A stretch of DNA of 64,000 nt from NCBI GenBank assembly GCA_963819655.1, contig CAWFXA010000001.1, positions 192,001 through 256,000 of the forward strand, written 5' to 3'. A program made the position numbers and the translations under genes. Positions 31,676 through 51,415 of this stretch are shown piece after piece (positions within the stretch are counted from its first letter, which is position 1; each line of letters opens with the position of its first letter). Origin of the DNA: an uncultured Chloroflexia bacterium (GTDB lineage Bacteria; Chloroflexota; Limnocylindria; Limnocylindrales; CSP1-4). The notes beneath the pieces are model-generated. The model saw only the letters and a program-made list of their open reading frames with translations, had not been told where the DNA came from and made no database searches.

Positions 31676-32977
31676 CTACGGGGCCTCAGGCGTGATCTCG
31701 ACCGTGCCCTTCACGAAAGCCGCGCCCCTCGTGTCGAGCACCTCGAGCGTCGCGAGTGCCGCCTGCGCGAGGTCCGTGCGATAGGCATCGCCCGACGGTG
31801 GCGCCGCGATGACGCCGGCCGCTAGGCAGACATCGATCGTGCGCTGCCATTCGGCTGGGTCCAGTACGCCGATCCCCCCGGGTGCCGGCCAGATGAGCGG
31901 GTTGACCTCGTTCATCGCCCATGCCTCGTGGCCGGCCTGCAACCTCGACGCCGGAGGGCTCGCACCGGGCGCCGCCGCTGACGTCCCAGGTGAAGCGACC
32001 GGCGCCGATGCGCTCGGGCTCGCCGACGCGTCGGGCGCCACGGTCTCTCCCGCCCTCACGACCGCCTCGACGCATTCCGCCGGATGGTCGCGGCAGAACA
32101 TCCAGCCCTGGAACGACGCCTTCAGGAATCGGGAGGCGAGCTCCTCGTTGCCGTCCTGGTCGAGCCAGGACGCCCGGGCGAAGATCGCGTCCTGGAGCAT
32201 GGCCGTGCCCTCATCGTTGTAATTGATCACGTTGAAGTCGGTCGGTTGGTACGGCGAATTGGTCGTCGGATCTGTCGCCTCGAGGACCTGCGCGTAGCCG
32301 TCGTAGATCGTGGCCTGGGCGACGTCGATCCCGCCTCGCAGGAACTCGCGCATCTCCGTGTCCTGCTTGACGAGGCTGACGTCCTGCTCGAGATCCAGGC
32401 CGGCGGCCTTGGCAGCGGCCGTCACCTCGAATTCGTTGCCCGCGCCGAGGAAACCCACCCGGTGTCCCTTCAGGTCGGCGGGTCGCGTGATGGCCATGTC
32501 GCGGAATGAGATCGACAGCGTCGCCGATCGGCGGAAGACCTGGCCGATATCGACGAGATCGGACGAGCCGGCTGCCCGGGCCTTCAACACGCGCGGCACC
32601 CAGCTGATCGTGAACTCGGGGCCCGACGATTCTGAGCCGACGACCTCTGGAAAGACGTCCGGCCCGCCCTCGACGATGGTCAGGTCGATGCCGGCGGCCT
32701 CGTAGAACCCCTGATCGATCGCGGCGATGTAGCCCGCGAACGCGGCGCCCATGGTCCAGCGCAGGAGGAGCCGCACAGGCGTGAGTGTTGGAGCGTCACT
32801 CGAGACGGCGGTGGGTACCGGCGCGAGCGCGGATGCTGACGCGGAGGTGGCGTCGCTGATCGTTGGCGAGCTCGATCCCCCGACGCAGCCAGTGACGAGG
32901 AGGCACGCGATCAGGGTCGCGGCGCGGGTCGCGGCGCCGGGCAGACGAGAGGCCGGCCGATGGCGGCCGGCCTCCAT
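31676..32977 (-). CDS. NMT1/THI5-like ABC substrate-binding lipoprotein (paralog 2)
   Basis: Lipobox VTGC, FAGYIAAIDQGFY, ISWVPR, MLQDAIFA, EVNPLIWPAP. Confidence 0.85.
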   Translation of the reverse strand: MEAGRHRPASRLPGAATRAATLIACLLVTGCVGGSSSPTISDATSASASALAPVPTAVSSDAPTLTPVRLLLRWTMGAAFAGYIAAIDQGFYEAAGIDLTIVEGGPDVFPEVVGSESSGPEFTISWVPRVLKARAAGSSDLVDIGQVFRRSATLSISFRDMAITRPADLKGHRVGFLGAGNEFEVTAAAKAAGLDLEQDVSLVKQDTEMREFLRGGIDVAQATIYDGYAQVLEATDPTTNSPYQPTDFNVINYNDEGTAMLQDAIFARASWLDQDGNEELASRFLKASFQGWMFCRDHPAECVEAVVRAGETVAPDASASPSASAPVASPGTSAAAPGASPPASRLQAGHEAWAMNEVNPLIWPAPGGIGVLDPAEWQRTIDVCLAAGVIAAPPSGDAYRTDLAQAALATLEVLDTRGAAFVKGTVEITPEAP

Positions 32978-33003
32978 CCGTTGCGTGGATCCGGGGGGTG
33001 CCG

Positions 33004-34167
33004 TTACTGGCCACCCTCCGTGAGGGTCACAGTGGCCTTCGTCCACGACGTGCCCTTGGTGTCGAGGTCCGTGAGCTCGGCGAGAGCCTTCTCCGCCAGA
33101 TCGTTCCGCCAGGCCGTCCCTTCGACTGGCTTGGTCAGGATCTTGCCGGAGAGAGCCACCTCGACCGTCCGGTCGAACGCCGCTGCGTCGGTGATACCGA
33201 TGCCGTTCGGCGCGGGCCAGATGATGCCGCTCACCTCGTTGAGCTGCCACGTCTGGTGCCCCTTGGGCAGCGCGGCATCTGACTTGATGACGATGTCGAC
33301 ACACTCTTCGGGGTTGTCGCGACAGAAGATCCAGCCCCTGAAGGAAGCCTTCAGGAACTTGACCGCGTCGTCCTCGTTGCCGGCCTGCGCCAGCCATGCC
33401 TCGGACGCGAAGATCGCGTCCTGGAGCATCGAGGTGCCGTACTCCTCCCAGGAGATGACGTTGAGGTCCTCGGCCTTATACAGCTCGCCCGTGGCTGGAT
33501 TCTTCTTCTCGAGGACCTGCGCGTACTCGTTGTAGATCATGGCCTGGGCGGCATCGATGTCGCCCTCCGCGAAGGCCACCATGTCGAACTGCTGCGCGAC
33601 GATCGACACGTCCGCGGGGTTGTCCGGGTCCAGGCCGGCCTTGCGCAGGCCGGCGTAGAGCTCGGCCTCGTTGCCGAAGCCCCACGCTCCGACCTTCTTG
33701 CCCTTGAGGTCCTCGGGCTTCGTGATGTTCTTGTCCTTGAACGAGACCTGCAGCGTCGGCGATCGCTGGAAGATCTGCGCGATCACGACGCCGTCGGCGC
33801 CACTCTCGCGCGGGGCCAGCATGCGCGGCACCCAGCTGATGCCGAATTCCGCCTGGCCGCCGGCCACGACGGTGGCGGGCACGATCTCCACCGCACCCGG
33901 CAGGATCTCGACGTCGAAGCCTTCCTCCGCGTAATAGCCCTTGTCCTTGGCCGCGAAATAGCCGGCGAACTGGGCCTGCGGGAACCACTGCAGCTGGAGC
34001 CGGATCGGCTTCAGCTCCGCGGGGGCGCTGGGGGCCTCCGAGGCAACGGAGGCACCAGGCGCCTCGCTCGCCGTTGACGGGGCCACCGTGGCGGCCCCAC
34101 CGCCCGTGCACGCAGCCAGCGCCATGCTGGCGGCAGCGAACAGCACGGTCATGCGCCGAAGTCGCAT
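33004..34167 (-). CDS. NMT1/THI5-like ABC substrate-binding lipoprotein (pyrimidine uptake)
   Basis: Lipobox LAAC, LQLQWFPQAQFAGYFAAKDKGYY, AMIYNEY; AAGGAG SD. Confidence 0.9.
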   Translation of the reverse strand: MRLRRMTVLFAAASMALAACTGGGAATVAPSTASEAPGASVASEAPSAPAELKPIRLQLQWFPQAQFAGYFAAKDKGYYAEEGFDVEILPGAVEIVPATVVAGGQAEFGISWVPRMLAPRESGADGVVIAQIFQRSPTLQVSFKDKNITKPEDLKGKKVGAWGFGNEAELYAGLRKAGLDPDNPADVSIVAQQFDMVAFAEGDIDAAQAMIYNEYAQVLEKKNPATGELYKAEDLNVISWEEYGTSMLQDAIFASEAWLAQAGNEDDAVKFLKASFRGWIFCRDNPEECVDIVIKSDAALPKGHQTWQLNEVSGIIWPAPNGIGITDAAAFDRTVEVALSGKILTKPVEGTAWRNDLAEKALAELTDLDTKGTSWTKATVTLTEGGQ

Positions 34168-34295
34168 AGGACACCTCTCCTTTGGCCGGACCGCGAGAGC
34201 GGCCCGCCTCCTCACGGCGCAGTCTAGCGAACGACGCCCGAAGGTATACGTCGGCCCTCTCGACGGGGCCTCGCCGGCCTACCGGACAGGCCCGC

Positions 34296-35123
34296 TCAGG
34301 ACCAGGCGGCCTGCCGGCCGTACCAGGGCATCGCGATCCGCTCGATGACGGCGACCACGAGGTACAGGCCGATCCCGATGGCGCACGCGAACACGATCGC
34401 GGCCCACGACCGCTCGAAGTTCAGGAACGCGGAATAGGTCGCGATGTACTGGCCGAGGCTCGCTCGCGGTGCAGCGAAATACTCGCCGACGACGGCGCCG
34501 ATGGTTGCCAGCGTCACCGCCAGCCGAAGCGACGTGAAGATGTACGGGAGTGCGTTCGGGACCCGCAGCTTGCGGAACACGGCGGATTCCGGGGTCGCGT
34601 ACGAACGCAGCAATTCGAGGGCGCGCGGGTCGACGGTGGTCAGGCCGCGGACCGTGTTGATCAGCACCGGGAAGAAGCACAGGACGGCCGCGACCATCGC
34701 CTTCGACAGCTGCTGATCAAGCCCGAACCAGTTGTTGAACAGCGGCGCGAACGCGAGGATCGGCACGGAGCTCGCGGCGACCGCGAACGGCATCAGCGAG
34801 TCCTGCATGAACCGGAATCGCGCCGTGACGGTGCCGACGACGATGCCGGCCGTCGCACCGATCAGCAATCCCGCCAGGATCTCAAGGAACGTGTACCGTG
34901 CGGCCGCATACAGCTCCGGGAGATACGTCTGCCACGCTGTCGCGATCGCAAGTGGACTCGGCAGGATGAACTGCTTGATCCCAAAGACCCGGACGATGAC
35001 CTCCCAGGCGGTCAGCAGTCCGACGAGCAGGAGTGCCGGTGGGCCCCAGTCGCGCAACCGACGGGCGATGCCCGCAGTCACCCCCTGTGACCGCGCCGGC
35101 CGGGCGATCTCGCCGGCGGTCAT
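34296..35123 (-). CDS. NitT/TauT ABC permease
   Basis: ILPSP, FFPVLINTVRGL, KLRVPNALP, GAVVGEY. Confidence 0.9.
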   Translation of the reverse strand: MTAGEIARPARSQGVTAGIARRLRDWGPPALLLVGLLTAWEVIVRVFGIKQFILPSPLAIATAWQTYLPELYAAARYTFLEILAGLLIGATAGIVVGTVTARFRFMQDSLMPFAVAASSVPILAFAPLFNNWFGLDQQLSKAMVAAVLCFFPVLINTVRGLTTVDPRALELLRSYATPESAVFRKLRVPNALPYIFTSLRLAVTLATIGAVVGEYFAAPRASLGQYIATYSAFLNFERSWAAIVFACAIGIGLYLVVAVIERIAMPWYGRQAAWS

Positions 35124-35986
35124 CCCGACAGGCCCTCGGCCGCGACCCGCCGGGTGGCTAGCTCGTCGGGGTCACCCTCGTCCCCGGTCCCGCTGCCTCG
35201 CCGCTCGTCGCCTCGCAGGGCTTCGCGCACCGCGGTCACGAGGTGGAAATACTGCTCCAGCTCGCGCGTATCGGCGGATCGCTGGCGGGGCAGGTCGATA
35301 TCGATCACGGCGCTGATCCTGCCCGGCCGCGGCGACATGACCACGACGCGGGTGGACAGGAACACGGCCTCCGCGATCGAGTGCGTGACGAACACGATGG
35401 TCGTCTCGGTGCGCTCCCAGATCTTGAGCAGCTCGAGATTCATCCGCTCACGGGTCATCTCGTCGAGAGCCCCGAACGGCTCGTCCATGAGGAGGATCGC
35501 GGGGTCGACGGCGAGTGCGCGGGCGATGGCGACACGCTGCTGCATCCCGCCCGACAACTGCCACGGGTAGTGCCCGCCGAAGTCGGACAGCTCGACGAGA
35601 CGGAGATGCTCGAGCGCGCGCTCCGTCCGCTGGCGCTTCGGGGTGCCGCTCACCTCGAGCGGCAGCTCGACGTTGCCCTGGACAGTCCGCCAGTCGAACA
35701 GCACGGGCGCCTGGAAGACCATCCCGTAGTCGCGATCGAGACGCGCCCGAGGCGCGGGCTTGCCGTTGACCGTCACCGTGCCCGAGGTCGGGGAGGTGAG
35801 ATCGCCGATGATGCGCAGGAGCGTCGACTTGCCGCAGCCCGACGGGCCGATCAGCGACACGAACTCCCCGGCCGCCACGGTCAGGTCGATATCGAGCAGG
35901 GCCTCGACCCGGCCTGCACCCTGGCCGCGCTGGGCGAAGACCTTCGACACCCCGGCGATCGCGACGACGGGCCTCGTTTCGGCCAT
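35120..35986 (-). CDS. NitT/TauT ABC ATPase
   Basis: [38 protein letters not shown]. Confidence 0.92.
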   Translation of the reverse strand: MAETRPVVAIAGVSKVFAQRGQGAGRVEALLDIDLTVAAGEFVSLIGPSGCGKSTLLRIIGDLTSPTSGTVTVNGKPAPRARLDRDYGMVFQAPVLFDWRTVQGNVELPLEVSGTPKRQRTERALEHLRLVELSDFGGHYPWQLSGGMQQRVAIARALAVDPAILLMDEPFGALDEMTRERMNLELLKIWERTETTIVFVTHSIAEAVFLSTRVVVMSPRPGRISAVIDIDLPRQRSADTRELEQYFHLVTAVREALRGDERRGSGTGDEGDPDELATRRVAAEGLSG

Positions 35987-36879
35987 CAGGCGACGGCCTG
36001 GTCGACACGACGCTCGTGGCGGAGCACCCAGCCTTCGACGCCGGCGACCAGCAGGTACACGCCGATGCCCAGAACCGATGAGACCACGATCGTGGCCCAC
36101 AGGTATTCGGCGTTGAGGGAGTAGTACTGCATCCCGGTGATGATCTGGCGGGCCAGCCCGTCCTGGATGAGCGACGGCAGCTCCCCGACGATCGCGCCGA
36201 CGACCGCGGCCGGCGCCGCGATCCGGAACCCCGTGAACAGGTAGGGCCTCGCGGCCGGTAGACGGAGCTTGCGCAGGATCGCCCAGCTCGACGCGGCATA
36301 CGAGCGCATCAGCTCGAGGGCGCGTGGGTCGTACGCGCGCAGGCCGCGCAGGGCGGCGATCGTGACCGGGAAGAACGTCAGATAGGTCGAGACGATCGCC
36401 ACGCCGAACCAGTCGGCCTTGAGACCGATCACGATGAGCGGCGCGATCGCGATGATCGGGATGGTCTGGCTGGCCACGATCAGCGGCACGAGTGCGCGTT
36501 CGAGCACCCGAACGTGGACGAGCACGATCGCCAGCCCGAGCCCGAATAGCGTCCCCAGCGCGAACCCGATCGCCGCGTTCCGCAGCGTGAACAGGGCCGC
36601 GCGCACGAGTCGCGTGACCGTCGTCGCGCCGACCGCATCCTCGCGCCCGAACTCGGCCGCGATATCCCAGAAATGGGGCAGCTTGGTATCGGTCGCGAAC
36701 GGGAATGTCAGCGGCGGATCATGGTCGAACACGATCCCGGTGCCCAGGAACGAATCGTAGTGCCAGCGATCGCCGCCGATGAACTTGGCCGTTTCCCAGA
36801 CGACGAGGAGCGCGATGAGGACCGTGAAGAACCCCACGACCGGGCGGAGTCGCCGGCGGATCGTCGTGCGGGCCGCCAT
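35986..36879 (-). CDS. NitT/TauT ABC permease
   Basis: SQTIPIIAIAP, FFPVT, KLRLPAARP, GAIVGE. Confidence 0.9.
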   Translation of the reverse strand: MAARTTIRRRLRPVVGFFTVLIALLVVWETAKFIGGDRWHYDSFLGTGIVFDHDPPLTFPFATDTKLPHFWDIAAEFGREDAVGATTVTRLVRAALFTLRNAAIGFALGTLFGLGLAIVLVHVRVLERALVPLIVASQTIPIIAIAPLIVIGLKADWFGVAIVSTYLTFFPVTIAALRGLRAYDPRALELMRSYAASSWAILRKLRLPAARPYLFTGFRIAAPAAVVGAIVGELPSLIQDGLARQIITGMQYYSLNAEYLWATIVVSSVLGIGVYLLVAGVEGWVLRHERRVDQAVA

Positions 36880-36882: not shown

Positions 36883-38220
36883 TCAGCCGGTGACCGCCTG
36901 ATCGGAGATGTCGAGCGCCGCGTCGATGACCTCGAAGCCGTGCGCCAGCTCCTCTTCGTTGATGCACAGCGGCGGGTTCGTGTGGATCGAGTTGTTGGCG
37001 ATCATCGCGTACACCCCGTTGTCGCGGAGGTGCTTGCCGATCGCCTTCATCTCGTCGGACGTGCCGTTGAACGGCGTGAGCGGCGTCCACGGATCCTGCG
37101 TCCGGACGAGATCGAGGATCCCGAACAGGCCCAGGTTTCGCGTCGCTCCGACTGACGGATGCTTCGCTGCGAGTCGCTCGTGATGCTCACGCATCCGGGC
37201 GCCCATACGCGTCGCGTTGTCCATGAGGCCGTCCTCCTCGTAGACGCGGATCGTCGCAAGCGAGGCGGCAAGGGAGACGGGATGCGAGGAGTAGGTCAGC
37301 CCGCCGTAGAACATCCTGTCCTCGAACGCCTCGGCGATGTGGTGGCGCATCCCGACGGCCCCGAGCGGCAGGTACGACGACGTCAGGCCCTTGGCCACCG
37401 TCATGAGGTCCGGGACGACGCCCCAGTGGTCGACGGCGAACCAGCGCCCGGTCCGACCGAAACCGGCCATGACTTCGTCGCAGACCATGAGGATCCCGTT
37501 CCGGTCGCAGATCTCGCGGACGCCCTGGAGGTACCCGTCGGGCGGGATGAGGATGCCGTTCGTGCCCACGATCGTCTCGAGGAACACCGCAGCGATCGTG
37601 TGGGCGCCCTCGTAGCGGATGACGTCCTCGAGGCCCTGCAGGCTCTCCTCGACCGGCCGGGGCTCCTTCTCACCCCAGCGGTGGGTATCGGGATAGCGCA
37701 CGACCCCGACGAGACCGGGCTCGTTGGCCCAGCGGCGCGGGTCACCGGTCAGCGTCATCGCCCCGAGCGTGGCCCCGTGGTAGGCGCGATAGCGCGCCAA
37801 CAGCTTGTACCGGCCCGTGAAGGCGCGCGCGAGCTTGATCGCGTTCTCGATCGCCTCGGCGCCGCCCAGCGTGAAGAACACCTTGTCGATGTCGCCGGGC
37901 AGGATCTCGGCGAGCTTCTGCCCCAGGCGGGCGCGGATCTCGGTCGCGAATGCCGGCTGGACGTATTGCAGCTTGGTCGCCTGTTCGGTGATCGCGTCGA
38001 TGACGCGGCGGTCGCCGTGGCCGATGTTGACGGACATCAGCTGACTGTTGAAGTCGAGGATCCGTCGCCCCTCGGGCGTGTACAGCCAGACGCCCTCGGC
38101 GTGGTCGATGGCGATCGGGTCGACGGCGCCCTGGACCGACCAGGAAAAGAAGGTATGCGCTCGATTGAGGGCGACGATCTCCTCGGACGTCATCGCCCCC
38201 TGAGCGGTGCCGATGCCCAT
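36883..38220 (-). CDS. Class III (omega) aminotransferase, likely beta-alanine:pyruvate type
   Basis: DFNSQLMSVNIGHG, GAEAIENA, YHGAT, DEVMAGFGRTG, AKGLTS; pyrimidine-catabolic context. Confidence 0.85.
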   Translation of the reverse strand: MGIGTAQGAMTSEEIVALNRAHTFFSWSVQGAVDPIAIDHAEGVWLYTPEGRRILDFNSQLMSVNIGHGDRRVIDAITEQATKLQYVQPAFATEIRARLGQKLAEILPGDIDKVFFTLGGAEAIENAIKLARAFTGRYKLLARYRAYHGATLGAMTLTGDPRRWANEPGLVGVVRYPDTHRWGEKEPRPVEESLQGLEDVIRYEGAHTIAAVFLETIVGTNGILIPPDGYLQGVREICDRNGILMVCDEVMAGFGRTGRWFAVDHWGVVPDLMTVAKGLTSSYLPLGAVGMRHHIAEAFEDRMFYGGLTYSSHPVSLAASLATIRVYEEDGLMDNATRMGARMREHHERLAAKHPSVGATRNLGLFGILDLVRTQDPWTPLTPFNGTSDEMKAIGKHLRDNGVYAMIANNSIHTNPPLCINEEELAHGFEVIDAALDISDQAVTG

Positions 38221-38307
38221 GGGTCCTCCTCTGCGCCCTCGGGCGCGAGACCGGATTACAGCACATCTGCCGCGCGTCGACGGGCGGGTTCGCCAGGTAG
38301 GCCGGCG

Positions 38308-39270
38308 TTACGAGTCTCGATGCGTCGAACTCGACGGGCCCACCAACACCCTGATGGCCGCAGGGACGACGCGGGCGGTCAGCCATCCCGCAGCGTGCGG
38401 GTCGCCGTCCGTCTGGACGTGCTGGGGTGGTTCGGCATCGATGTGGACCTCGCGGACCGTTCGGCGGATGACTGCCCCACGGAGCTCGCCCTTGCGCACC
38501 AGTAGCTCGGCGGCGCTGCGCAAGCCGGCCACGACTCCGCGACCGCCGACGAAGAGGAGGTCCAGTCGACCGTCGCCCGGGTCGATGGACTCGCGCGGGC
38601 CGACCCGACCCGGGATGATCTCCCCGGCGTTGGCCACGAGCGCCAGATGGCCGTGCAGATGCAGCAGTTCGCCGTCGGCGGTGATGGTGAATTCGCCCGC
38701 CGCCAGTCGGGTCAGCTCTCGGAGCGTCGCGCCAATGTAGGCCCCGAAGCGCAAACGACGCTTCCATTCATCACTCGCCGCGGCCATGATCCTGGCGTCA
38801 AGCCCGACCCCGGCTGCCACAAGGAACGGGCCATGGCCGTCCGGTCGGCTCACGCCGGGCCGACCCCATTCCGCCGCTCCGAGGTCGATGGTCCGTGGGA
38901 CGCCCCGCCGAATGGCATCCAGCGCCGGGCCGATGCCACGGATGCCCAGGCTGGCGGCGAGGACGTTGCCCGTCCCGCGCGGGACGATCGCCAGGGGGAT
39001 CGGCCGGCCCGACAGGCTCGCTGCGACCTCCCGGACGGTCCCGTCACCACCGATCGCCACGACCAGGGGTGGATCCGTGAGACGCTCGAGGGCCGCCCGA
39101 GCATCCGCCTGTCCGCCGGCAACCAACAGGGGCTTCCGCTCCGTCCGGGTGAGCACCGCCCGAGCGACCCGCTCGACGAGCGCGTTCCGATCGGTCGGAT
39201 CGCTCAGCCGCGAGGCGCGCGGATTGATCACGAGCAGTGGCGCGGACGGATCTCCGGCGATCGATCCCAT
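38308..39270 (-). CDS. Diacylglycerol kinase catalytic-family (YegS/DgkB-like) lipid kinase
   Basis: VINPRAS, GGDGT, PRGTGNVLA, GVGLDA, TDGD. Confidence 0.88.
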   Translation of the reverse strand: MGSIAGDPSAPLLVINPRASRLSDPTDRNALVERVARAVLTRTERKPLLVAGGQADARAALERLTDPPLVVAIGGDGTVREVAASLSGRPIPLAIVPRGTGNVLAASLGIRGIGPALDAIRRGVPRTIDLGAAEWGRPGVSRPDGHGPFLVAAGVGLDARIMAAASDEWKRRLRFGAYIGATLRELTRLAAGEFTITADGELLHLHGHLALVANAGEIIPGRVGPRESIDPGDGRLDLLFVGGRGVVAGLRSAAELLVRKGELRGAVIRRTVREVHIDAEPPQHVQTDGDPHAAGWLTARVVPAAIRVLVGPSSSTHRDS

Positions 39271-39372
39271 GCCCACCGATCGTACGTCAGCCGGACGCGC
39301 CGTCAGGGCGGTCTCGTCGCCCTCCCGGTGCTACCGTTTCGGCACGAACCCGCCCCGACCCGGAGGAGGTCC

Positions 39373-39780
39373 ATGGATCGCGCCGGCTTCCGCGCCTGGC
39401 TCCAGCGCTATGTCGATGCCTGGCGGCTGAACGATCCGGTGGCGGTCGGCGACCTGTTCAGCCCGGATGTGCGCTATGCCTTCGATCCGTTCGGCGAGGC
39501 GGTCGCGGGCCGGAACGCGGTCGTGGAGGCGTGGCTCGACGACCCGGACGACCCGGGTTCGTGGCAGGCCGACTACGACGTCCTCGCGGTCGACGGCGAC
39601 GTGTTCGTCGCGCACGGCCGAACGCGCTATCTGACCGACGACCGCAAATCGGTCGACCGCGAGTTCGCGAACGTGTTCGTGTGCCGTTTCGACGAGGACG
39701 GGCGCTGCCGCGAGTTCACCGAGTACTACATGCGCCGCCGGCCGGACGCTGAGCCGGACGAGGAGCCGGTGGCCGGTTAG
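39373..39780 (+). CDS. SnoaL/NTF2-like protein (third paralog)
   Basis: WLQRYVDAW...WLDDPDDPGSWQADY...FDEDGRCREFTEYY; GGAGGAGG SD. Confidence 0.85.
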   Translation: MDRAGFRAWLQRYVDAWRLNDPVAVGDLFSPDVRYAFDPFGEAVAGRNAVVEAWLDDPDDPGSWQADYDVLAVDGDVFVAHGRTRYLTDDRKSVDREFANVFVCRFDEDGRCREFTEYYMRRRPDAEPDEEPVAG

Positions 39781-39851
39781 GTCCGCGGCGCGGGTGTACC
39801 CTCCCCTCTCTCCATCACGCCACGTCATGCCGCGACACGAGGGTGAGGACC

Positions 39852-40703
39852 ATGCCGCGTATCGTCCGAGGGGCGCTCGTCCAGGCTAGCTGGACCGGCG
39901 ACAAGGAATCGATGATCCAGAAGCACGAGCAACGCGCCCACCAGGCGGCGAAGGATGGCGCCCAGGTCATCCTGTTCCAGGAGCTGTTCTACGGGCCGTA
40001 CTTCTGCCAGGTCCAGGACGCCCAGTACTACAGCTATACCGAGCTCATCCCGGACGGTCCGACGACCAAGCGGATGCAGGATCTCGCCAAGCAGACGGGC
40101 ATGGTCGTCGTCGCCCCGATGTACGAGGAAGACCAGCAGGCGTCCGGGATCTACTACAACACCGCGGCAGTCATCGACGCGGATGGCACGTACCTGGGGA
40201 AGTACCGCAAGACGCACATCCCGCACGTCAAGGGGTTCTGGGAGAAGTTCTACTTCCGGCCCGGGAACATGGGCTATCCCGTGTTCGAGACGGCGGTCGG
40301 CAAGGTCGGCGTGTACATCTGCTACGACCGCCACTTCCCGGAGGGCGCGCGCGCGCTCGGGCTGAACGGCGCGGAGATCGTGTTCATCCCGTCGGCCACC
40401 TCGCGCGGCCTGTCCGAGTACCTGTGGCGCATCGAGCAGCCCAGCCACGCGGTCGCCAACGGCTACTACGTCGGGACGATCAACCGCGTCGGTATCGAGA
40501 AGGAATACGGGGACGACGACTTCTATGGGCAGAGCTACTTCGTCGATCCGCGCGGTCAGTTCGTCGGGGACGTCGGCTCGGCGCACGACGAGGAGCTCAT
40601 CGTCCGCGATCTCGATCTGGACCGGATCGCCGAGGTCCGCAACACGTGGCAGTTCTTCCGGGATCGACGTCCGGACGCCTACGCAGACTTGACGCGCCCG
40701 TAG
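39852..40703 (+). CDS. Nitrilase-superfamily amidohydrolase, beta-ureidopropionase-like
   Basis: FQELFYGPYFC, YRKTHIP, WEKFYFRPG, ICYDRHFPE (E-K-C triad). Confidence 0.9.
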   Translation: MPRIVRGALVQASWTGDKESMIQKHEQRAHQAAKDGAQVILFQELFYGPYFCQVQDAQYYSYTELIPDGPTTKRMQDLAKQTGMVVVAPMYEEDQQASGIYYNTAAVIDADGTYLGKYRKTHIPHVKGFWEKFYFRPGNMGYPVFETAVGKVGVYICYDRHFPEGARALGLNGAEIVFIPSATSRGLSEYLWRIEQPSHAVANGYYVGTINRVGIEKEYGDDDFYGQSYFVDPRGQFVGDVGSAHDEELIVRDLDLDRIAEVRNTWQFFRDRRPDAYADLTRP

Positions 40704-40830
40704 GCGCTATCATCCGCGCCGGCTCGGCTGTCAGGAGGAGGACAGCCGAGTCCTCACAGCAATGGCTAGCGGAGCGTCGCCTTGCTGTTCGGATGGCGGG
40801 CGGCGGATCCCCGTTGAGGGTGCCAGATCC

Positions 40831-41820
40831 ATGAAGTTCGGTTTCACGCTCAAGCCCGACCACACGATCGAGCGCACCCTCGCGCTGACGCGCCAGGCCG
40901 AGGCGGCCGGCTTCGAGTACGGCTGGCTGTTCGACAGCCACGTGCTGTGGCGCGATCCGTATCCGTTGCTGACGCTCATGGCAGGCGTGAGCGAGCGCAT
41001 GCGGCTGGGGACCTGCGTCACCAATCCGGGCACGCGCGAGCCGTCGGTCACGGCGTCCTCGCTGGCCACGCTGGACGAGATCAGCGACGGACGGATGGAC
41101 CTAGGCATCGGTCGCGGCGACTCGGCCCGACGCGTGCTGGGCAAGCCGCCGATCACCCTCGCGCACACCGAGGAGGCGATCAACGTCATCCGGACCCTGG
41201 TGAGCGGCGGATCGATCACCTACGAAGGAACGGAATTGACGTTCCCGTGGACCCGCGGCTGGACGCTGCCCGTGTGGGTCGCGGGTTACGGGCCGATGGC
41301 CATCGCGATGACCGGCCGCGTCGCGGACGGGATCATCCTGCAGCTCGCCGACCCGGACCTCATCCGCTGGTTCGTGGGCCAGCTGCGCGAGGCCGCCGCG
41401 GCCGCCGGACGCGAACCGGGCTCTCTCAAGGTCCAGGCCGCGGCGCCTGCCCATGTCGGGCCGCGCGACGTCGGGCGGGAGCGGACCCGCTGGTTCCCGG
41501 CGCTCGTGTCGAACCACGTCGTGGATCTCGTCAACAAGTACCCGCGCGAGGAGCTGCCCGAGTCGCTGACCGGCTATGTCACCGACCGAACGGGCTACGA
41601 CTACCGCCACCACGCCGAGGTCGGATCGTCCAATGCGGCATTCGTCGGCGACGAGGTGACCGATCGGTTCTGCCTGCTCGGTGGGGCCGACGAACAGATC
41701 GCCAAGCTCCGCGAGCTGGCCGACGTCGGTGTCGACCAGTTCAACTTCTACCTCATGAACGGCGACGAGGAAGCCCAGCTCGAGGCCTACGGACGGGACG
41801 TGATCCCCGCCTTCCGCTGA
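40831..41820 (+). CDS. LLM-class, probably F420-dependent oxidoreductase (TIGR03842-like)
   Basis: FDSHVLW, GTCVTNPGTR, GIGRGDSARR, AGYGP, ADGIILQLADP. Confidence 0.85.
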   Translation: MKFGFTLKPDHTIERTLALTRQAEAAGFEYGWLFDSHVLWRDPYPLLTLMAGVSERMRLGTCVTNPGTREPSVTASSLATLDEISDGRMDLGIGRGDSARRVLGKPPITLAHTEEAINVIRTLVSGGSITYEGTELTFPWTRGWTLPVWVAGYGPMAIAMTGRVADGIILQLADPDLIRWFVGQLREAAAAAGREPGSLKVQAAAPAHVGPRDVGRERTRWFPALVSNHVVDLVNKYPREELPESLTGYVTDRTGYDYRHHAEVGSSNAAFVGDEVTDRFCLLGGADEQIAKLRELADVGVDQFNFYLMNGDEEAQLEAYGRDVIPAFR

Positions 41821-41833
41821 GTTCGTGCCAGTA

Positions 41834-42190: not shown

Positions 42191-42370
42191 ATGATCGCCA
42201 GACTCGGTCGTCGTGATCCGTTCTGGGACGATGGCAAGGGTGCGCGCCGACGACAGCTCCGATTGCGCGTCGAAGGCCTGCTCGCGATCGCCCTCGCCAT
42301 CGCCGCTTGCGGCCTGACCGCCGCTATGTGGCTGCGCCAGATCCTGCCCGTGGTTGGCATCCAGATCTGA
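42191..42370 (+). CDS. Small (59 aa) single-TM protein
   Basis: GGAGG SD before ATG; MIARLGRRDPFWDDGKG...EGLLAIALAIAACGLTAAMWL. Confidence 0.7.
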   Translation: MIARLGRRDPFWDDGKGARRRQLRLRVEGLLAIALAIAACGLTAAMWLRQILPVVGIQI

Positions 42371-42556
42371 CCCCCCGGCGTCCGCCGCCGGTGCCGCACC
42401 ACACCGCAAAAACGATCGCCGCGCAACGCCATGGCTGCCCTTTGCTGGCGTCGAGTGGGATTGAGGGTCGACACCATGGGACCCCTTCGCTACTCGACAA
42501 CGTGACCCGTCCTCGGTGGAGACTCGCTCCCTCATCCGAACCGGAGAGGGAACGCC

Positions 42557-43597: not shown

Positions 43598-43691
43598 CCC
43601 GTCGACCGAGGTCGTCCGCCGACCCGCTCATCACCTACCATCTGCCTCCTGACCGACTCGACGCCGTGGTCGCCCAGGAGGGACAGCCTCG

Positions 43692-45089
43692 ATGCGCACG
43701 CTCATCACCAACGGGACCATCGTCACCGGGGAGGGATCGCAGTCCGCGGACGTGCTCATCGACGGCGAGACCATCGCCGCGATCGGCGGCGATCTGGCGG
43801 GCGCCGGCATGACGGCAGACGACACGATCGACGCCTCCGGGAAGTACGTCATCCCGGGTGCGATCGACGTCCATACCCACATGGAGCTGCCATTCGGCGG
43901 CACGTTCGCGAAGGACACCTTCGAGACCGGCACGCGGGCCGCCGCCTTCGGCGGGACCACCACGATCGTCGACTTCGCGGTCCAGACCCGCGGCCAGTCG
44001 CTGCGCGAAGGGCTCGACGCGTGGCACGCCAAGGCCGAGGGCAACGCCGTCGCCGACTACGGCTTCCACATGATCATGAGCGACGTCACCGACGACACGC
44101 TCAAGGAGATGGACACGCTGGTCGCCGAGGGTGTGCCCGACTTCAAGCTGTTCACGGCCTACCCGGGCGTGTTCTACAGCGACGACGGTGCGATCTTCCG
44201 GGCGATGCAGCAGACGGAGAAGAACGGCGGGCTGATCATGATGCACGCCGAGAACGGCATGGCCATCGACGTCGTCGCCGAGCAGACCTTCGAGAGCGGG
44301 ACGACCGACCCGATCGGTCACGGGCTGGCGCGGAAGGCCGTCTTCGAGGGTGAGGCGACCAACCGGGTCATCCGCCTTGCCGAGGCCGCCGGGGTCCCCG
44401 TGTACATCGTCCACCTGTCCGCCAGCGATGCGTTGGCCGAGGTCCGCGCCGCCCGGGACCGCGGCTCCAGGGTCTTCGCCGAGACGTGCCCGCAGTACCT
44501 GTTCCTGTCGCTCGACGACCTCCGCAACGGGTTCGAGGGTGCCAAGTTCATCTGCTCGCCACCGCTCCGCCCGAAGAGCCACTGGGACGACCTGTGGTCG
44601 GGTCTTGTGAAGGACGACCTTCAGCTGGTCTCGACCGACCATTGCCCGTTCGACTTCCACGGCCAGAAGGAGCTCGGGCGGGGCGACTTCCGGAAGGTGC
44701 CCAACGGCCTGCCGGGCGTCGAGGACCGTGTCGACCTGATGCACGACGGCGGGGTCGTGGGCGGACGGATCTCGAAGGAACGGTGGGTCGAGATCCTGTC
44801 GACGGCGCCCGCCAAGCTGTTCGGGATGTATCCACGCAAGGGCTCGGTCAGCGTCGGCGCCGACGCCGATCTCGTCGTCTACGACCCGAACCGGAAGCGG
44901 ACGATCTCCGCCACCAGCCACCACATGGATGTCGACTACTCGTGCTACGAGGGCCGCCAGGTGCAGGGCGCGAGCGACGTCGTCCTGTCGCGTGGGTCGG
45001 TCATCGTCCGCGACGGCACGTTTACCGGACGCAAAGGCCACGGCCGGTTCGTGAAGCGATCGACCGCCGACCACGCCAGGATCTCCTGA
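43692..45089 (+). CDS. hydA: Dihydropyrimidinase / D-hydantoinase
   Basis: PGAIDVHTH, AAAFGGTTT, FKLFTAY, MHAENG, ETCPQY, SPPLR, STDHCPF, PNGLPG. Confidence 0.95.
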   Translation: MRTLITNGTIVTGEGSQSADVLIDGETIAAIGGDLAGAGMTADDTIDASGKYVIPGAIDVHTHMELPFGGTFAKDTFETGTRAAAFGGTTTIVDFAVQTRGQSLREGLDAWHAKAEGNAVADYGFHMIMSDVTDDTLKEMDTLVAEGVPDFKLFTAYPGVFYSDDGAIFRAMQQTEKNGGLIMMHAENGMAIDVVAEQTFESGTTDPIGHGLARKAVFEGEATNRVIRLAEAAGVPVYIVHLSASDALAEVRAARDRGSRVFAETCPQYLFLSLDDLRNGFEGAKFICSPPLRPKSHWDDLWSGLVKDDLQLVSTDHCPFDFHGQKELGRGDFRKVPNGLPGVEDRVDLMHDGGVVGGRISKERWVEILSTAPAKLFGMYPRKGSVSVGADADLVVYDPNRKRTISATSHHMDVDYSCYEGRQVQGASDVVLSRGSVIVRDGTFTGRKGHGRFVKRSTADHARIS

Positions 45090-45091
45090 CG

Positions 45092-45565
45092 ATGAGCCAG
45101 ATCGAGGGCGTGCGCTTCGGCCACGTGAATGTCACCACATCCGACTGGCGCCGGCTGGTCGCGTTCTACACCGACGTGTTCGGGTGCGAGTTCGTGCCAC
45201 CGGAGCGGGACATCCAGGGCGAGCACCTAGATAGGGCGACGGGCCTGCGCGATGCGCACCTGACCGGTGCCCATCTCCGTCTGCCGGGCCACGGTCCGGA
45301 CGGGCCGACGATCGAGATCTTCTCGTACGACGAGCTCGAGAAGCACCCCGGGGCGAACGTCGCCCGCGCCGGATGGGGCCACGTCGCGTTCCAGGTGCCC
45401 TACGTTCCCACAGCGGTCGAGGCCGTCATCGCGGCCGGCGGCGGGCGGCTCGGCGAGGTCATCACGACGCGCACTTCCGATGGCCGGCAGGTGACCTGGG
45501 GCTACGTGACGGACCCGGACGGCAACATCGTCGAGCTCCAGGCCTGGTCGGTCGCGGCGGACTGA
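45092..45565 (+). CDS. VOC/glyoxalase-family protein
   Basis: GHVNV, FYTDVFG, IEIF, GHVAFQV, DPDGNIVEL. Confidence 0.85.
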   Translation: MSQIEGVRFGHVNVTTSDWRRLVAFYTDVFGCEFVPPERDIQGEHLDRATGLRDAHLTGAHLRLPGHGPDGPTIEIFSYDELEKHPGANVARAGWGHVAFQVPYVPTAVEAVIAAGGGRLGEVITTRTSDGRQVTWGYVTDPDGNIVELQAWSVAAD

Positions 45566-45570
45566 ACCGG

Positions 45571-46008
45571 GTGGTCGAGGTCCGCCGACGCGTCACGATC
45601 CCCGCCGAGCTCGACCGGCTCGCCGAGATCCGCGCGGTCGTGCGCGATGTCGCGCATGGCTGCGAGGCGCCGGCGGACTGCATCGACGACCTCGTCCAGG
45701 CGGTCGACGAGGCGGCCACGAACATCATCGTGCATGGCTACCGGGGCGCCCAAGGCACCATCGAGCTGACCGCGGAGCTGGTATCGGGCGACATCGTCTT
45801 CACGCTCGAAGACACGGCTCCGCCCTACGATCCGACTACCGTCCCGCCACCGGACCTGACCGTCCCACCCGCCCAGCGCCGGCCCGGCGGCATGGGCGTC
45901 CACCTGATGCGCCTCGCCACCGATTCGCTTGTGCATCGACCGCGCCCGGGCGGTGGCAACATACTGACCCTCACGCGTGCGAGGGCTCGTCGATTCAAGG
46001 AGGTGTGA
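45571..46008 (+). CDS. RsbW-like anti-sigma factor / serine kinase
   Basis: AVDEAATNIIVHGY, LEDTAPPYDP, GGMGVHLM. Confidence 0.88.
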   Translation: MVEVRRRVTIPAELDRLAEIRAVVRDVAHGCEAPADCIDDLVQAVDEAATNIIVHGYRGAQGTIELTAELVSGDIVFTLEDTAPPYDPTTVPPPDLTVPPAQRRPGGMGVHLMRLATDSLVHRPRPGGGNILTLTRARARRFKEV

Positions 46009-46011
46009 TCG

Positions 46012-46431
46012 ATGGCGATGCAGACCACGATCGAGCGCGTCGACGCGCACGTCCCGATCACGGTCATGACGCTCACCGGGGAGCTCGACGCGTCCAACTA
46101 CCTGCGCCTGGTCGACGATGTGCGCCCGCTCTACGGGGCGGGTGTCCGTCACCTGTTGCTCGATCTCACCGACCTGACGTTCATCTCCAGCTCGGGTCTC
46201 GTGTCGCTGTATTCGATCGAGAAGGTCATGCAGGGCCAGGAGCCACCGGATCCGGAGTACGGCTGGGGTGCGTTGCACGAGGTCGGCCGGGCGGTCGACG
46301 ACGGCACGATCCAGAGCGCCGTCCAGCTGTGCGGCGTCCAGCCGGGCGTGCGCGAGGTGATCGAACGCACAGGGCTCGATCGTCTCTTCCAGATCCATCC
46401 CGATCGGGCGACCGCAGTCGCCGAGTTCTGA
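46012..46431 (+). CDS. STAS-domain anti-anti-sigma factor
   Basis: LTGELDA, LLDLTDLTFISSSGL, VREVIERTGL; AAGGAGG SD. Confidence 0.88.
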   Translation: MAMQTTIERVDAHVPITVMTLTGELDASNYLRLVDDVRPLYGAGVRHLLLDLTDLTFISSSGLVSLYSIEKVMQGQEPPDPEYGWGALHEVGRAVDDGTIQSAVQLCGVQPGVREVIERTGLDRLFQIHPDRATAVAEF

Positions 46432-46450
46432 CCGGATCGGGGTCGCGGGC

Positions 46451-47551
46451 GTGACCGGCCTCGACCCGTCGTTCCCGGTCGACCGCGCGACGCTCGAGCG
46501 GATCCTGGCTCCGTTCAAACGAGTTCCGGACGGCCTGACAGTCACCCTCCAGGACGCGTTGGGTCAGACGATCGACGGATCGCCGGCCGACGCCGCGTCT
46601 TCCGCGAACGCCCGTCTCACGCGCGACCTGCTGGTCGGTGGGTCGGTGTTCGGGCGGCTCGTCGCCGAGGGTCCCGGGGTCACCGACAGGACGATCGCGG
46701 CATCGCTCGACGCGCTGGCAGCTGCGCTGGAGCAGCTCGCCGAGGCCGGGCAGCGGTCGCCGGCCGCCTCCGCCACCGAGGTGGGGACCGCCGTGACGGA
46801 CCGACGATCCGGCATCGCGGCCGAGCTGGCCGTGGGTCGCCTGCATCAGCGCAGCATCGTGTCGCTGGTGGCTCCGGAGGTCGCCGGCTACGACCTCGCG
46901 AGCCATTACGAGCCGGCCCGCGAGCTCGGGGGCGACTTCTTCGAGCTGTTCCGCCTGCGCCGGCGCGGGCAACCGCTGGGCATCGTCATCGCGGACGTCG
47001 CCGGCAAGGGCATCGCCGCGGCGCTCCTGATGGCATTCGCGCGGCCGATCATCCACTCGGCGCTGCACGCCGCGAGCGGGCCGGCCGACGCGCTCGAGCG
47101 GACCAATCGGATCCTCGTGGACGAGGTCCATACCTCGCTGTTCATCACCGCGCTCGTCGGCCGGCTCGACCCCCGCTCGGGCCACGTTCGGCTGGCCAAC
47201 GCGGGGCACGAGCCCGCGCTTCTCGTCCCGGGCGACGGCGGAGCCATCGAGAGCATCGAAGGTGGCGGTCCGCTGCTGGGTGCCTTCGCGCCTCTCGACC
47301 TGACCGAGATCGACCTGACCCTGCGACCCGGTGACCGGCTCGTGCTGTACACGGACGGCGTGACCGATTCTCGGTCCCCATCCGGGGAACGGTTCGGCAT
47401 GCCCCGCTTGCTCGAGACCATCGAGAGGGCGCGCGCAGGCTCTGCCAACGACTTGGTGGCTGCCATCCGATCAGCCGAGGCGAATTTCCGGAACGGCGCC
47501 GAATGCGTCGACGATGTGACGATCGTGGCCGTCGGACGGCACGCGTCATGA
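46451..47551 (+). CDS. PP2C/SpoIIE (RsbU-like) serine phosphatase
   Basis: LGGDFF, IADVAGKG, NAGH, LYTDGVTD, DDVTIV. Confidence 0.9.
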   Translation: MTGLDPSFPVDRATLERILAPFKRVPDGLTVTLQDALGQTIDGSPADAASSANARLTRDLLVGGSVFGRLVAEGPGVTDRTIAASLDALAAALEQLAEAGQRSPAASATEVGTAVTDRRSGIAAELAVGRLHQRSIVSLVAPEVAGYDLASHYEPARELGGDFFELFRLRRRGQPLGIVIADVAGKGIAAALLMAFARPIIHSALHAASGPADALERTNRILVDEVHTSLFITALVGRLDPRSGHVRLANAGHEPALLVPGDGGAIESIEGGGPLLGAFAPLDLTEIDLTLRPGDRLVLYTDGVTDSRSPSGERFGMPRLLETIERARAGSANDLVAAIRSAEANFRNGAECVDDVTIVAVGRHAS

Positions 47552-49877: not shown

Positions 49878-49879
49878 CT

Positions 49880-51415
49880 CTACCGCGTCCGCGGGAACCC
49901 CAGATCGACCTTGCTCGTGCCCGGATCCGGCCAGCGTGACGTGACGATCTTGGCCCGCGTGTAGAACTGGATGCCCTCGGGGCCATACATGTGCAGATCG
50001 CCGAACAGGCTCGCCTTCCAGCCACCGAAGCTGTAGTAGGCGACTGGCACGGGGATCGGCACGTTGATCCCGACCATCCCGGCGTTGACCTCGAACTGGA
50101 ACTGGCGCGCTGCTCCGCCGTCGCGCGTGAAGATCGCCGTCCCGTTGCCGTACGGGTTCTCGTTGATGAGCTTGACCGCCTCGTCGTACGTCTTGACCCG
50201 GACGACTGTCAGGACCGGGCCGAAGATCTCGTCGCGATAGGCATCCATCGAGGTGGTGACGTTGTCGATCAGCGACACCCCCAGGAAGAAGCCGTCGCTT
50301 CCGCCGTACAGCGGGTGCTCGCGGCCGTCGGTCACGACCGTCGCGCCCTGCTTCTGGGACGAGTCGATGTAGCCCGCGACCTTGTCGCGATGCTGGCGGG
50401 TGACGAGTGGCCCCATCTCGGCGGTCGGGTCGGAACCGGGACCGACCTTCACCTCGGGGAGCCGCTTGGAGATCGCGTCGACCAGGGGGTCGGCCACATC
50501 GCCGACCGCCACGACAGTCGCGATCGCCATGCACCGCTCACCGGCCGAGCCGTACCCGGCCGACACGGCCGCATCGGCAGCCATGTCGATGTCCGCGTCC
50601 GGCAGCACGATCATGTGATTCTTCGCGCCGCCGAGCGCCTGCACGCGCTTGCCGTTCCTGGTGCCGGTCTCGTAGATGTAGCGCGCGATCGGCGTCGAGC
50701 CCACGAAGCTGACGGCGGCGATGTCCGGATGCTCGAGGATTGCGTCGACGGCCACCTTGTCGCCGTGGACCACGTTGAACACGCCGTCGGGGACGCCCGC
50801 TTCGTGGAGCAGCTCGGCCAGGAAGATCGACGCCGACGGGTCCTTCTCGGACGGCTTGAGGATGAACGTGTTGCCGGTCGCGATGGCGGTCGCGAACATC
50901 CACATCGGGACCATCGCCGGGAAGTTGAAGGGCGTTATGCCCGCGACGACACCGAGCGGCTGGCGGATCTGGTAGACGTCGACGCCGGTGCTCGCCTGCT
51001 CGGTGAACCCGCCCTTAAGCAGATTCGGGATGCCGCACGCGAATTCGAGGTTCTCAAGGCCACGCGCGATCTCACCCAGCGCATCCGACGGCACCTTGCC
51101 GTGCTCGGCGGTGAGGTGGGCCGCCAGCTCATGTCGGCGCTGGTCGACCAGGTTGCGGATCTTGAACAGGATGTCGGTGCGCTTGCTCAGCGACGTGGCG
51201 CGCCAGCCGGGGAAGGCGGCGCGGGCGGCGGCGACGGCTGCCGCGACCTCGTCGGCCGACGCAAAGTCGACGTGCTTCGTGACGACGCCCGTCGCAGGGT
51301 CGTAGACATCGCCCTGGCGGCCCGACGTGCCGGCCGTGGAGCTCCCGCCGATCCAATGGCTGATGCGCCCCGGAGAGGCGGCGCTTGTGATCTCGGGTTC
51401 GGCGACCTGGGTCAT
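49880..51415 (-). CDS. mmsA: CoA-acylating (methyl)malonate-semialdehyde dehydrogenase
   Basis: GITPFNFPAMVPMW, KPSEKDP, SFVGST, GGAKNH, GERCMA, GINVPIPVP. Confidence 0.95.
   Translation of the reverse strand: MTQVAEPEITSAASPGRISHWIGGSSTAGTSGRQGDVYDPATGVVTKHVDFASADEVAAAVAAARAAFPGWRATSLSKRTDILFKIRNLVDQRRHELAAHLTAEHGKVPSDALGEIARGLENLEFACGIPNLLKGGFTEQASTGVDVYQIRQPLGVVAGITPFNFPAMVPMWMFATAIATGNTFILKPSEKDPSASIFLAELLHEAGVPDGVFNVVHGDKVAVDAILEHPDIAAVSFVGSTPIARYIYETGTRNGKRVQALGGAKNHMIVLPDADIDMAADAAVSAGYGSAGERCMAIATVVAVGDVADPLVDAISKRLPEVKVGPGSDPTAEMGPLVTRQHRDKVAGYIDSSQKQGATVVTDGREHPLYGGSDGFFLGVSLIDNVTTSMDAYRDEIFGPVLTVVRVKTYDEAVKLINENPYGNGTAIFTRDGGAARQFQFEVNAGMVGINVPIPVPVAYYSFGGWKASLFGDLHMYGPEGIQFYTRAKIVTSRWPDPGTSKVDLGFPRTR

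Follow-up and report, generated by a model that had tools for sequence, protein, structure and literature searches.

The reductive breakdown of uracil and thymine is a textbook pathway, and to our knowledge its first enzyme has so far been described only as the FMN/FAD/Fe-S dihydropyrimidine dehydrogenase (DPD) PreTA, or PydA, which is linked to NAD(P)H or ferredoxin. The present analysis concerns a stretch of 64,000 nucleotides (the window, meaning the whole stretch) from an uncultured Chloroflexia bacterium of the Limnocylindria. Here, genes for later steps of this pathway surround a gene for an oxidoreductase of the luciferase-like monooxygenase type (LLM), at 40831..41820 on the plus strand. 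Judging from its family and its neighbours, the LLM is probably an F420H2-dependent reductase of the C5=C6 bond of uracil and thymine that replaces DPD. The source genome, called G000 here, is a 3.49 Mb assembly in 3 contigs and is 91% complete; other sampled genomes are given G-numbers and loci L-numbers. The G+C content of the window is approximately 70%, and its genes were chosen by third-position G+C and named with Pfam and NCBIfam.

The PreT/PreA enzyme (PydA; EC 1.3.1.1/1.3.1.2) catalyses the reaction proposed for the LLM, at the same place in the pathway and beside the same kind of dihydropyrimidinase gene (hydA). The folds are unrelated. PreA, which works with the FAD/NAD(P)H subunit PreT, has a DHO_dh/FMN barrel and Fe-S clusters, whereas the LLM is a luciferase-like TIM barrel for which direct hydride transfer from F420H2 is predicted. 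A ferredoxin-dependent variant of PydA is described in the accessible text of PMC7332683. The closest characterised homologue of the LLM is Mer, the N5,N10-methylene-tetrahydromethanopterin reductase (structures 1f07, 1z69, 1ezw and 8qpl), which is alike in fold, predicted cofactor and reductive direction, but whose substrate is a C1 unit on a pterin and whose context is methanogenesis rather than pyrimidine catabolism; the Mer models score the LLM at 132-151 bits, far below their cut-offs of 276-349. Another relative in the same broad superfamily is RutA, an FMN-dependent pyrimidine monooxygenase of the LLM family that acts directly on the uracil ring as a first catabolic step, opens it by oxidation with O2 and depends on RutB-G. 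Of the 31 NCBIfam matches of the LLM, the 25 best include no Rut-type model, and the neighbours of the LLM encode enzymes of the reductive pathway.

There is some precedent for the proposed chemistry, which is taken here from the accessible parts of the papers cited. SSGG-03002/NpsU of the mureidomycin/napsamycin pathway, a putative F420/FMN-type oxidoreductase, is genetically required for reduction of the uracil ring at C5-C6 in mureidomycins (PMC10714638); its substrate is a uridyl-peptide antibiotic and not free uracil, no in vitro activity was obtained, and it is compared here by description only. The LLM-fold enzyme LxmJ reduces the C=C bond of dehydroalanine with F420H2 (PMC8498797). For uricolytic clusters of the Chloroflexota, a putative F420 luciferase-family reductase has been proposed to replace a PydA-like reductase (PMC12507026). 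That prediction shares with the present one the phylum, the idea and a dearomatising step beside an amidohydrolase, but belongs to a uric-acid pathway with SsnA, HyuA, YgeW, YgeX and YgeY. A search of the open full-text literature, which does not extend to subscription journals or supplementary files, found no paper linking F420 to dihydropyrimidine dehydrogenase, dihydropyrimidinase, ureidopropionase or dihydrouracil catabolism. What is new here is therefore probably the unrelated enzyme and cofactor for the first step, the pathway and the reaction being already known.

The reading frame of the LLM is open from 40762, and its homologues begin at the MKFG codon at 40831. Membership of TIGR03842 (F420_CPS_4043) was borne out by a score of 416.3 bits against a cut-off of 295.45, over model positions 1-329; its relatives reach 408-451 bits elsewhere in the Chloroflexota, and those of Streptomyces 583-590 bits. 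NCBIfam labels this family a 'hypothetical equivalog' and plasmid annotations give a generic GO term only, which agrees with the statement in the initial annotation that such LLMs are predicted to depend on F420 and lack an assigned reaction. PF00296 (212 bits) is the only domain found, with no match to PF01180. The LLM thus fails the family test for PreA/PydA (a DHO_dh barrel with a C-terminal 4Fe-4S region and at least 335 bits on NF006183); it may work like a DPD, yet it is not a member of that family. The nearest solved structure is the F420-dependent Mer 1f07 (E 1.6e-35, full length). The six best solved relatives, and 10 of 16 among the matches listed, are F420 enzymes, with 126 bits for Mer and 44-53 bits for Adf or Fgd. 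The 25 best of the 31 NCBIfam matches are mostly F420-type families, the thirteen best included. F420 as the cofactor of the family is indicated by these solved relatives, by the cofGHDCE/fno operons described below and by the presence of CofD in all 42 LLM genomes sampled in the phylum. When 12 members of the family, drawn from three phyla, are aligned, N228, H229, D232, Y256, Y258 and H261 (window numbering) in a C-terminal insertion are invariant, and these polar residues are candidates for substrate binding and protonation.

The association of the LLM with hydA was followed across 301 evenly drawn Chloroflexota genomes, with the same sample used for TIGR03842, hydA, PreA and CofD and the results cross-tabulated by hand. 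Above the cut-offs, 42 genomes have TIGR03842, 106 dihydropyrimidinase, 7 PreA and 189 CofD. All 42 of the TIGR03842 genomes also have hydA (background 106/301) and all 42 have CofD (background 189/301). In 37 of the 42 the LLM and hydA are on one contig and at most 5.4 kb apart, 36 of these from coordinates and the other being G074, where hydA starts at the contig end right after the LLM and CN-hydrolase genes. The other five (G124, G221, G115, G024 and G070) are fragmented at the locus. An 862-aa open frame in G074 had looked like a fusion of CN-hydrolase and LLM, but this was ruled out; the order there is aminotransferase-NCS1-LLM-CN-hydrolase-hydA, as separate genes.

Some of the distant loci are compact operons, such as L139 (LLM-CN-hydrolase-hydA, then (methyl)malonate-semialdehyde dehydrogenase (MMSDH) and aminotransferase) and L240 (aminotransferase-NCS1-LLM-CN-hydrolase-hydA). 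Others have an ABC transporter followed by LLM and hydA (L142 and L143). In L141 the LLM is followed by an ABC transporter, an aminotransferase and hydA, and then by npdG, cofE and cofD, while L144 (G133:C7) consists of CN-hydrolase-LLM-hydA. The L144 genome belongs to the same order, is approximately 1.1-1.2 Mb at 93% completeness and still has the CN-hydrolase-LLM-hydA block. The retention of the block in so small a genome suggests that it is important to the cells.

Within the class, a scan of species-representative genomes gave 80 loci with LLMs of 79-96% identity. Gene counts were made by tblastn of the window proteins (E<=1e-20, at least 60% query coverage), and contig ends truncate many of the loci. 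Of the 80 loci, 75 have the CN-hydrolase, 63 have hydA downstream and 50 have the aminotransferase, while MMSDH is within 10 kb of the LLM in 38. The CN-hydrolase adjoins the LLM in the layouts printed, and hydA comes directly after the LLM in several loci. Larger gaps, between aminotransferase and CN-hydrolase or between LLM and hydA, hold genes for glycosyltransferase, DAG kinase, PAP2, PLP decarboxylase and pyruvyl transferase. All of these are unrelated genes, and no PreTA-like reductase came to light among them in the variable gaps. The gene arrangement is far beyond chance.

The pairing extends to two other phyla. Two Streptomyces replicons, whose LLMs are those scoring 583-590 bits, have CN-hydrolase and aminotransferase and, further on, hydA-LLM. 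A tblastn search of plasmid records with the LLM returned 14 records. On plasmids of Leisingera and Paracoccus, cofG-cofH-cofD-cofC-cofE-npdG-LLM form one gene run. The divergent neighbour of this run in Leisingera caerulea is pntA-pntB-class-III aminotransferase-M20 'Zn-dependent hydrolase'-hydA-NCS1 permease, the M20 protein scoring 696 bits on NF006769. In Paracoccus, a homologue of the window's ABC transporter is encoded after the LLM. PreA was not found in any of the three plasmid records searched. In the Leisingera caerulea plasmid (NZ_CP081074.1, 155760-171227; L123/L151), pntAB lies between the cof-fno-LLM operon and the aminotransferase-carbamoylase-hydA-NCS1 genes, a position that hints at a dedicated NADH to NADPH to F420H2 supply line.

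A scan of metagenomes with the Leisingera LLM returned 80 proteobacterial-like loci at 71-100% identity, in which genes were counted by tblastn (E<=1e-15, at least 40% coverage). Some are near-copies of others (e.g. L195/L196/L198 and L212/L217/L218), so the counts are not independent. The cof or npdG genes are present in 59, where the LLM ends a cofGHDCE-fno operon. Genes for hydA, a carbamoylase (M20 or CN-hydrolase) or NCS1 are present in 33, or 41 when the pair of aminotransferase and MMSDH is also counted, and PreTA was found by tblastn on none of the 80. Thirty-two of the loci are 14 kb or longer, and such pyrimidine genes are present in 26 of these and cof genes in 28. For example, L175 reads cofGH and, further on, npdG-LLM-aminotransferase-MMSDH-M20, then hydA and NCS1, and L232 and L234 read upp-NCS1-hydA-LLM-M20. 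Across the lineages the type of carbamoylase (CN-hydrolase or M20) and of transporter (ABC or NCS1) differs, while the LLM-hydA pair is constant. This ties the LLM to the step beside hydA and not to the end of the pathway. The first step is also the only redox step ahead of the aminotransferase, and among the conserved oxidoreductases only the LLM has no role assigned.

Profile searches found no PreA/PydA in the window, as stated in the initial annotation, nor anywhere else in G000. G000 has a single DHO_dh match, in a PyrD-like gene at C1:367569, whose protein reaches 123.5 bits on NF006183, the PreA model, against a cut-off of 335. Of the 42 Chloroflexota genomes with an LLM, 38 are without PreA above the cut-off, and 37, including all 33 outside the window's family, are without a match at E<=1e-60. 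Taken together, the pairing with hydA, the cof operons and the want of another unassigned oxidoreductase support the LLM as a predicted F420H2-dependent first-step reductase, as was first suggested for this locus.

The pathway would then run as follows. Uracil or thymine would be imported by the NMT1-type ABC transporter, with part of it salvaged by Upp. The LLM would use F420H2 as the hydride donor for C6 of the pyrimidine, and protonation at C5 would give 5,6-dihydrouracil or 5,6-dihydrothymine. HydA, a clear member of its family, would open the dihydropyrimidine ring, and the CN-hydrolase would take off the carbamoyl group to leave beta-alanine or 3-aminoisobutyrate. From these the class-III aminotransferase would form malonate or methylmalonate semialdehyde, which MMSDH, also assigned by family, would convert to acetyl-CoA or propionyl-CoA. 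The F420/F420H2 couple is close to NAD(P)H in potential, and reduction of uracil should therefore be thermodynamically feasible. In the Proteobacteria, where a cofG-cofH-cofD-cofC-cofE-fno operon ends with the LLM gene, electrons would pass from NADPH through Fno to F420H2 and the LLM, and so feed pyrimidine reduction. In G000, CofC, CofD and CofE would build F420 from external FO, and its reduction would fall to an Fgd-family LLM or another dehydrogenase.

The cofD-cofC-cofE genes of G000 are at C1:139264-141576, approximately 51 kb before the window. They are part of an F420 'island' (L154, G000:C1:132000-146000; positions 4357-10490) in which an FDOR-like PNPOx-fold protein, an LLM, cofD, cofC, cofE and a second LLM are encoded in the same direction, with a purine/uridine phosphorylase-family gene nearby. 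The retention of these cof genes beside two further LLMs and an FDOR-like gene indicates that G000 invests in F420.

Several observations weigh against this assignment, beginning with the supply of the cofactor. A check of the genome for cof/fbi genes found cofC, cofD and cofE, but not cofG/cofH (fbiC). The FO synthase was found in G000 neither with profile hidden Markov models nor by tblastn with CofG/CofH of Paracoccus or FbiC of two relatives in the class, and of 61 genomes sampled from the class only 2 have CofH, whereas CofD is almost universal there. The class thus has the appearance of an FO auxotroph in which F420 is nonetheless in use. Since G000 encodes no FO synthase, supply of F420 would need uptake of FO, which is hypothetical. 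Nor was a homologue of npdG/fno found in G000 by tblastn, and its Fgd-family LLM is ambiguous, with 308.6 bits on TIGR03557, above the cut-off, and 333 bits on the 'FMN-dependent' TIGR03885, below the cut-off of that model. As for the family, the function proposed for TIGR03842 is predicted from gene context. The histidine that aligns with the 'D-H' motif of Mer is a serine in both Streptomyces sequences, and the Paracoccus plasmid with the cof-LLM operon has no hydA on that replicon. According to the accessible text of PMC8498797, characterised F420 enzymes of the LLM fold act mostly on alcohol/carbonyl or C=N groups, C=C reduction being more typical of the FDOR enzymes.

The distribution of PreA also counts against the assignment. 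An anti-correlation with the LLM was not found. PreA is rare (7 of 301 genomes), and four of the seven also carry the LLM (G079, G221, G245 and G253), all in the window's family; a fifth LLM genome, G088, has a PreA-like match at 288 bits, below the cut-off. Within this family PreA or a PreA-like gene is present in 5 of 9 LLM-positive genomes and 0 of 6 LLM-negative ones. The LLM-linked hydA is the sole hydA match at E<=1e-100 in G253, G079 and G245, so a canonical DPD could feed this same hydA; in these three genomes tblastn found no other pyrimidine genes among those queried within approximately 8 kb of PreTA. G245 has a second PreA-like gene beside an NCS1 permease. The co-occurrence fits coexisting isofunctional reductases with different cofactors, but would also fit a different substrate for the LLM.

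In genomes of the window's family PreT and PreA are fused in a protein of 878 aa (Fer4_20, Pyr_redox_2, DHO_dh and Fer4_21), like the animal DPD. Such loci include L136 (G221:C15, 5412-11346) and L235-L237, and in G221 the fused gene lies between hydA and MMSDH. A quick maximum-likelihood tree of hydA, with SH-aLRT support only and the careful search unfinished, places this PreTA-linked hydA of G221 inside the clade of LLM-linked Limnocylindria hydA (SH-aLRT 99). This suggests that the LLM-linked hydA genes encode ordinary dihydropyrimidinases. The tree leaves out L103 and L104 (high-scoring pairs under 400 aa) and L117 (a duplicate of L135), and L142 and L110, which are the same gene, were both kept.

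It is possible to place the LLM at the other end of the pathway, as an F420H2-dependent reductase of (methyl)malonate semialdehyde or another carbonyl compound in the manner of PydE/RutE, leaving uracil to an enzyme so far unrecognised. This would suit the preference of most characterised F420 enzymes of the LLM fold for alcohol or carbonyl groups (Adf, Fgd and hydroxymycolate dehydrogenase; PMC8498797, accessible text), and a semialdehyde-forming aminotransferase is indeed nearby in 50 of the 80 class-level loci and in L139, L141 and L240. The first step would then be left unassigned in 38 of 42 genomes, and the semialdehyde already has a consumer in MMSDH, which shares an operon with the LLM in L139. 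It is hydA that is the invariant partner, L140, L142, L143 and L144 having no aminotransferase inside loci of 12-19 kb, and the LLM is nearer in score to Mer than to Adf or Fgd. A function at the pathway end is considered quite unlikely. Reduction of some other N-heterocycle, such as a 5-substituted uracil, a pyrimidine-like ring or a hydantoin-type compound, in a cluster not primarily for uracil or thymine, would explain the PreTA retained alongside the LLM in four to five genomes of the window's family. It would also accommodate a CN-hydrolase below every equivalog cut-off, binding proteins without assigned specificity, the lineage-specific SnoaL-like gene attached in 60 of 80 loci, and the F420 LLM proposed, in the accessible text of PMC12507026, for breakdown of uric acid. 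Yet upp and NCS1 nucleobase permeases occur in the clusters, the omega-aminotransferase and MMSDH exactly suit beta-alanine and 3-aminoisobutyrate, and the LLM-linked hydA clade includes a PreTA-linked member. The gene set of the uricolytic locus L147 differs from these, and its genome gave no match to TIGR03842 at E<=1e-40. Another heterocycle as the substrate seems unlikely.

It has also to be considered that the LLM takes no catalytic part in the breakdown of pyrimidines, or uses a flavin in place of F420 in this lineage without FO synthase, with the pathway starting from imported dihydropyrimidines or N-carbamoyl compounds or from a reductase that has escaped recognition. The failure to find cofG/cofH here and in 59 of the 61 sampled genomes of the class, or fno in G000, would be explained in this way. 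On the other hand, LLM-hydA pairs in three phyla and whole cof-fno operons embedded in pyrimidine clusters strongly suggest a functional link, while the cof genes of the G000 island and the CofD found with every LLM in the phylum sample speak for F420 rather than a flavin. This makes a bystander or flavin enzyme very unlikely, and the F420H2-dependent reductase of uracil and thymine remains the probable function.

A broader proposal is quite possible, if short of probable: that TIGR03842 comprises widespread, unrecognised F420H2-dependent dihydropyrimidine dehydrogenases, that in many Proteobacteria the cofGHDCE-fno genes mainly power this step, and that the Limnocylindria depend on the FO of their neighbours to obtain nitrogen or carbon from pyrimidines. 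If the assignment is correct, the 'missing PydA' gap would be filled in many hydA genomes (here in 38 of 42 Chloroflexota LLM genomes) and a 'hypothetical equivalog' family annotated in three phyla would gain a function. The role of F420 in the Alphaproteobacteria was described as unknown, minor or niche-specific in a 2021 review (PMC8498797, accessible text), and this would be its first concrete physiological role there. Ene-reduction of small molecules would join the F420 chemistry of the LLM fold, which is of interest for biocatalysis, and an abundant soil class would depend on others for a cofactor precursor, FO.

The remaining pathway genes named in the initial annotation, for a transporter, dihydropyrimidinase, candidate ureidopropionase, omega-aminotransferase and semialdehyde dehydrogenase, were all recovered with Pfam and NCBIfam. 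The order of the LLM between the candidate ureidopropionase and hydA is likewise correct, but the LLM is not directly beside hydA, the two being separated by a gap of 1.87 kb with an inserted gene. The hydA gene (PydB role; 43692..45089, plus strand) scores 578.6 bits on TIGR02033 against a cut-off of 393. The gap before it consists of approximately 740 bp without clear coding signal followed by a gene for a secreted, proline-rich, membrane-anchored protein of 346 aa (42557-43597, plus strand), with a signal peptide, a proline-rich linker and a C-terminal anchor. This protein has no match in Pfam or NCBIfam. Its gene is present in 14 of 80 related loci, and is therefore seen as a variable insertion.

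The CN-hydrolase family N-carbamoyl amidohydrolase (39843..40703, plus strand; PF00795, 223 bits) is a proposed beta-ureidopropionase (PydC role). Among the NCBIfam models aguB matches it best, with 272 bits, below the cut-off of 410. The solved structures nearest to it are those of N-carbamoylputrescine amidohydrolase, which scores higher at 214 bits, and of animal beta-ureidopropionases; the beta-ureidopropionases matched, at 174-185 bits, include 2vhh, 6ftq and 8pt4. Directly upstream is a gene for a SnoaL_2/NTF2-like protein of 135 aa (39373..39780, plus strand; PF12680, 41.6 bits), with an ATG at 39373 after GGAGG. Sixty of the 80 class-level loci have this gene, which was not found in the distant Chloroflexota, Streptomyces or proteobacterial plasmid loci searched; it is a lineage-specific accessory gene.

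The class-III (omega) aminotransferase (36883..38220, minus strand; PF00202, 297.6 bits; NF004718, 529 bits) is a proposed beta-alanine/3-aminoisobutyrate aminotransferase. Its nearest solved relative is a taurine:2-oxoglutarate aminotransferase, followed by other omega-transaminases, and it is in one operon with LLM, hydA and MMSDH genes in L139, L141 and L240. In the window it belongs to an apparent single minus-strand operon together with an ABC permease (35986-36879; PF00528), an ABC ATPase (35120-36100; PF00005) and a second permease (34296-35123; PF00528), all three given as open reading frame limits with uncertain starts. Two NMT1/THI5-like binding lipoproteins, both with signal peptides, follow at 33004..34215 (PF09084, 150.4 bits; in NCBIfam a weak SsuA-family match only) and 31676..32977 (PF09084, 97.9 bits; ATG at 32977, then a lipobox-like signal peptide). 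Homologous binding proteins adjoin the LLM in L141-L143 and on the Paracoccus plasmid. The operon continues with an XRE-type HTH_3 regulator (30672..31541; PF01381, 36.7 bits), whose true start may be internal and which had no match in the NCBIfam search. Its last gene is upp, for uracil phosphoribosyltransferase (30022..30675; PF14681 UPRTase, 246 bits), which adjoins the transporter in 4 of the 80 class-level loci, where flanks extend far enough.

Downstream of hydA is a partner-switching module at 45373-47551, consisting of a HATPase_c_2 anti-sigma kinase, a STAS protein and a SpoIIE/PP2C phosphatase, which is retained after hydA in 23-25 of 80 related loci. It is followed by a homocysteine methyltransferase and a YGGT protein, and then, 4.8 kb past hydA, by the CoA-acylating MMSDH (49880..51415, minus strand, ATG at 51415; TIGR01722, 721 bits). 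The flanking genes are housekeeping genes (asparaginase, GltX, Lgt, Mdh and PEPCK).

A scan of 38100-45300 for sigma-70-type promoters and intrinsic terminators found none; as it covered only these types in a high-GC Chloroflexota stretch, it tells little of transcription. In two rhizosphere metatranscriptome libraries and a further, doubtful 'RNA' library, contigs match portions of the CN-hydrolase, LLM and hydA at 88-99% identity; these are short pieces from relatives, in which DNA carry-over is possible and no co-transcription is seen. No sequencing run contained half of the search words.

In genomes without the LLM, hydA has unrelated surroundings, with genes for SulP, SecD or a protein kinase as neighbours in some cases and, in others, a context of the AllG/FdrA type or the uricolytic cluster YgeY-carbamate kinase-YgeW-SsnA-HyuA-YgeX; in a few genomes it is beside PreT/PreA. 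One such cluster, L147 (G129:C18, 3275-10910), encodes an M20 protein (YgeY-like), carbamate kinase, a YgeW-like carbamoyltransferase, an SsnA-like amidohydrolase, HyuA and a PALP protein (YgeX-like). It is a complete-looking reductive uric-acid cluster and matches the cluster type described in the accessible text of PMC12507026. G000 itself has a second dihydropyrimidinase/HyuA-like gene (423 bits) in L153 (G000:C2:1481000-1500000), whose neighbours encode a xanthine-dehydrogenase-type molybdoenzyme, an amidohydrolase and malate synthase, and whose context may be purine-related.

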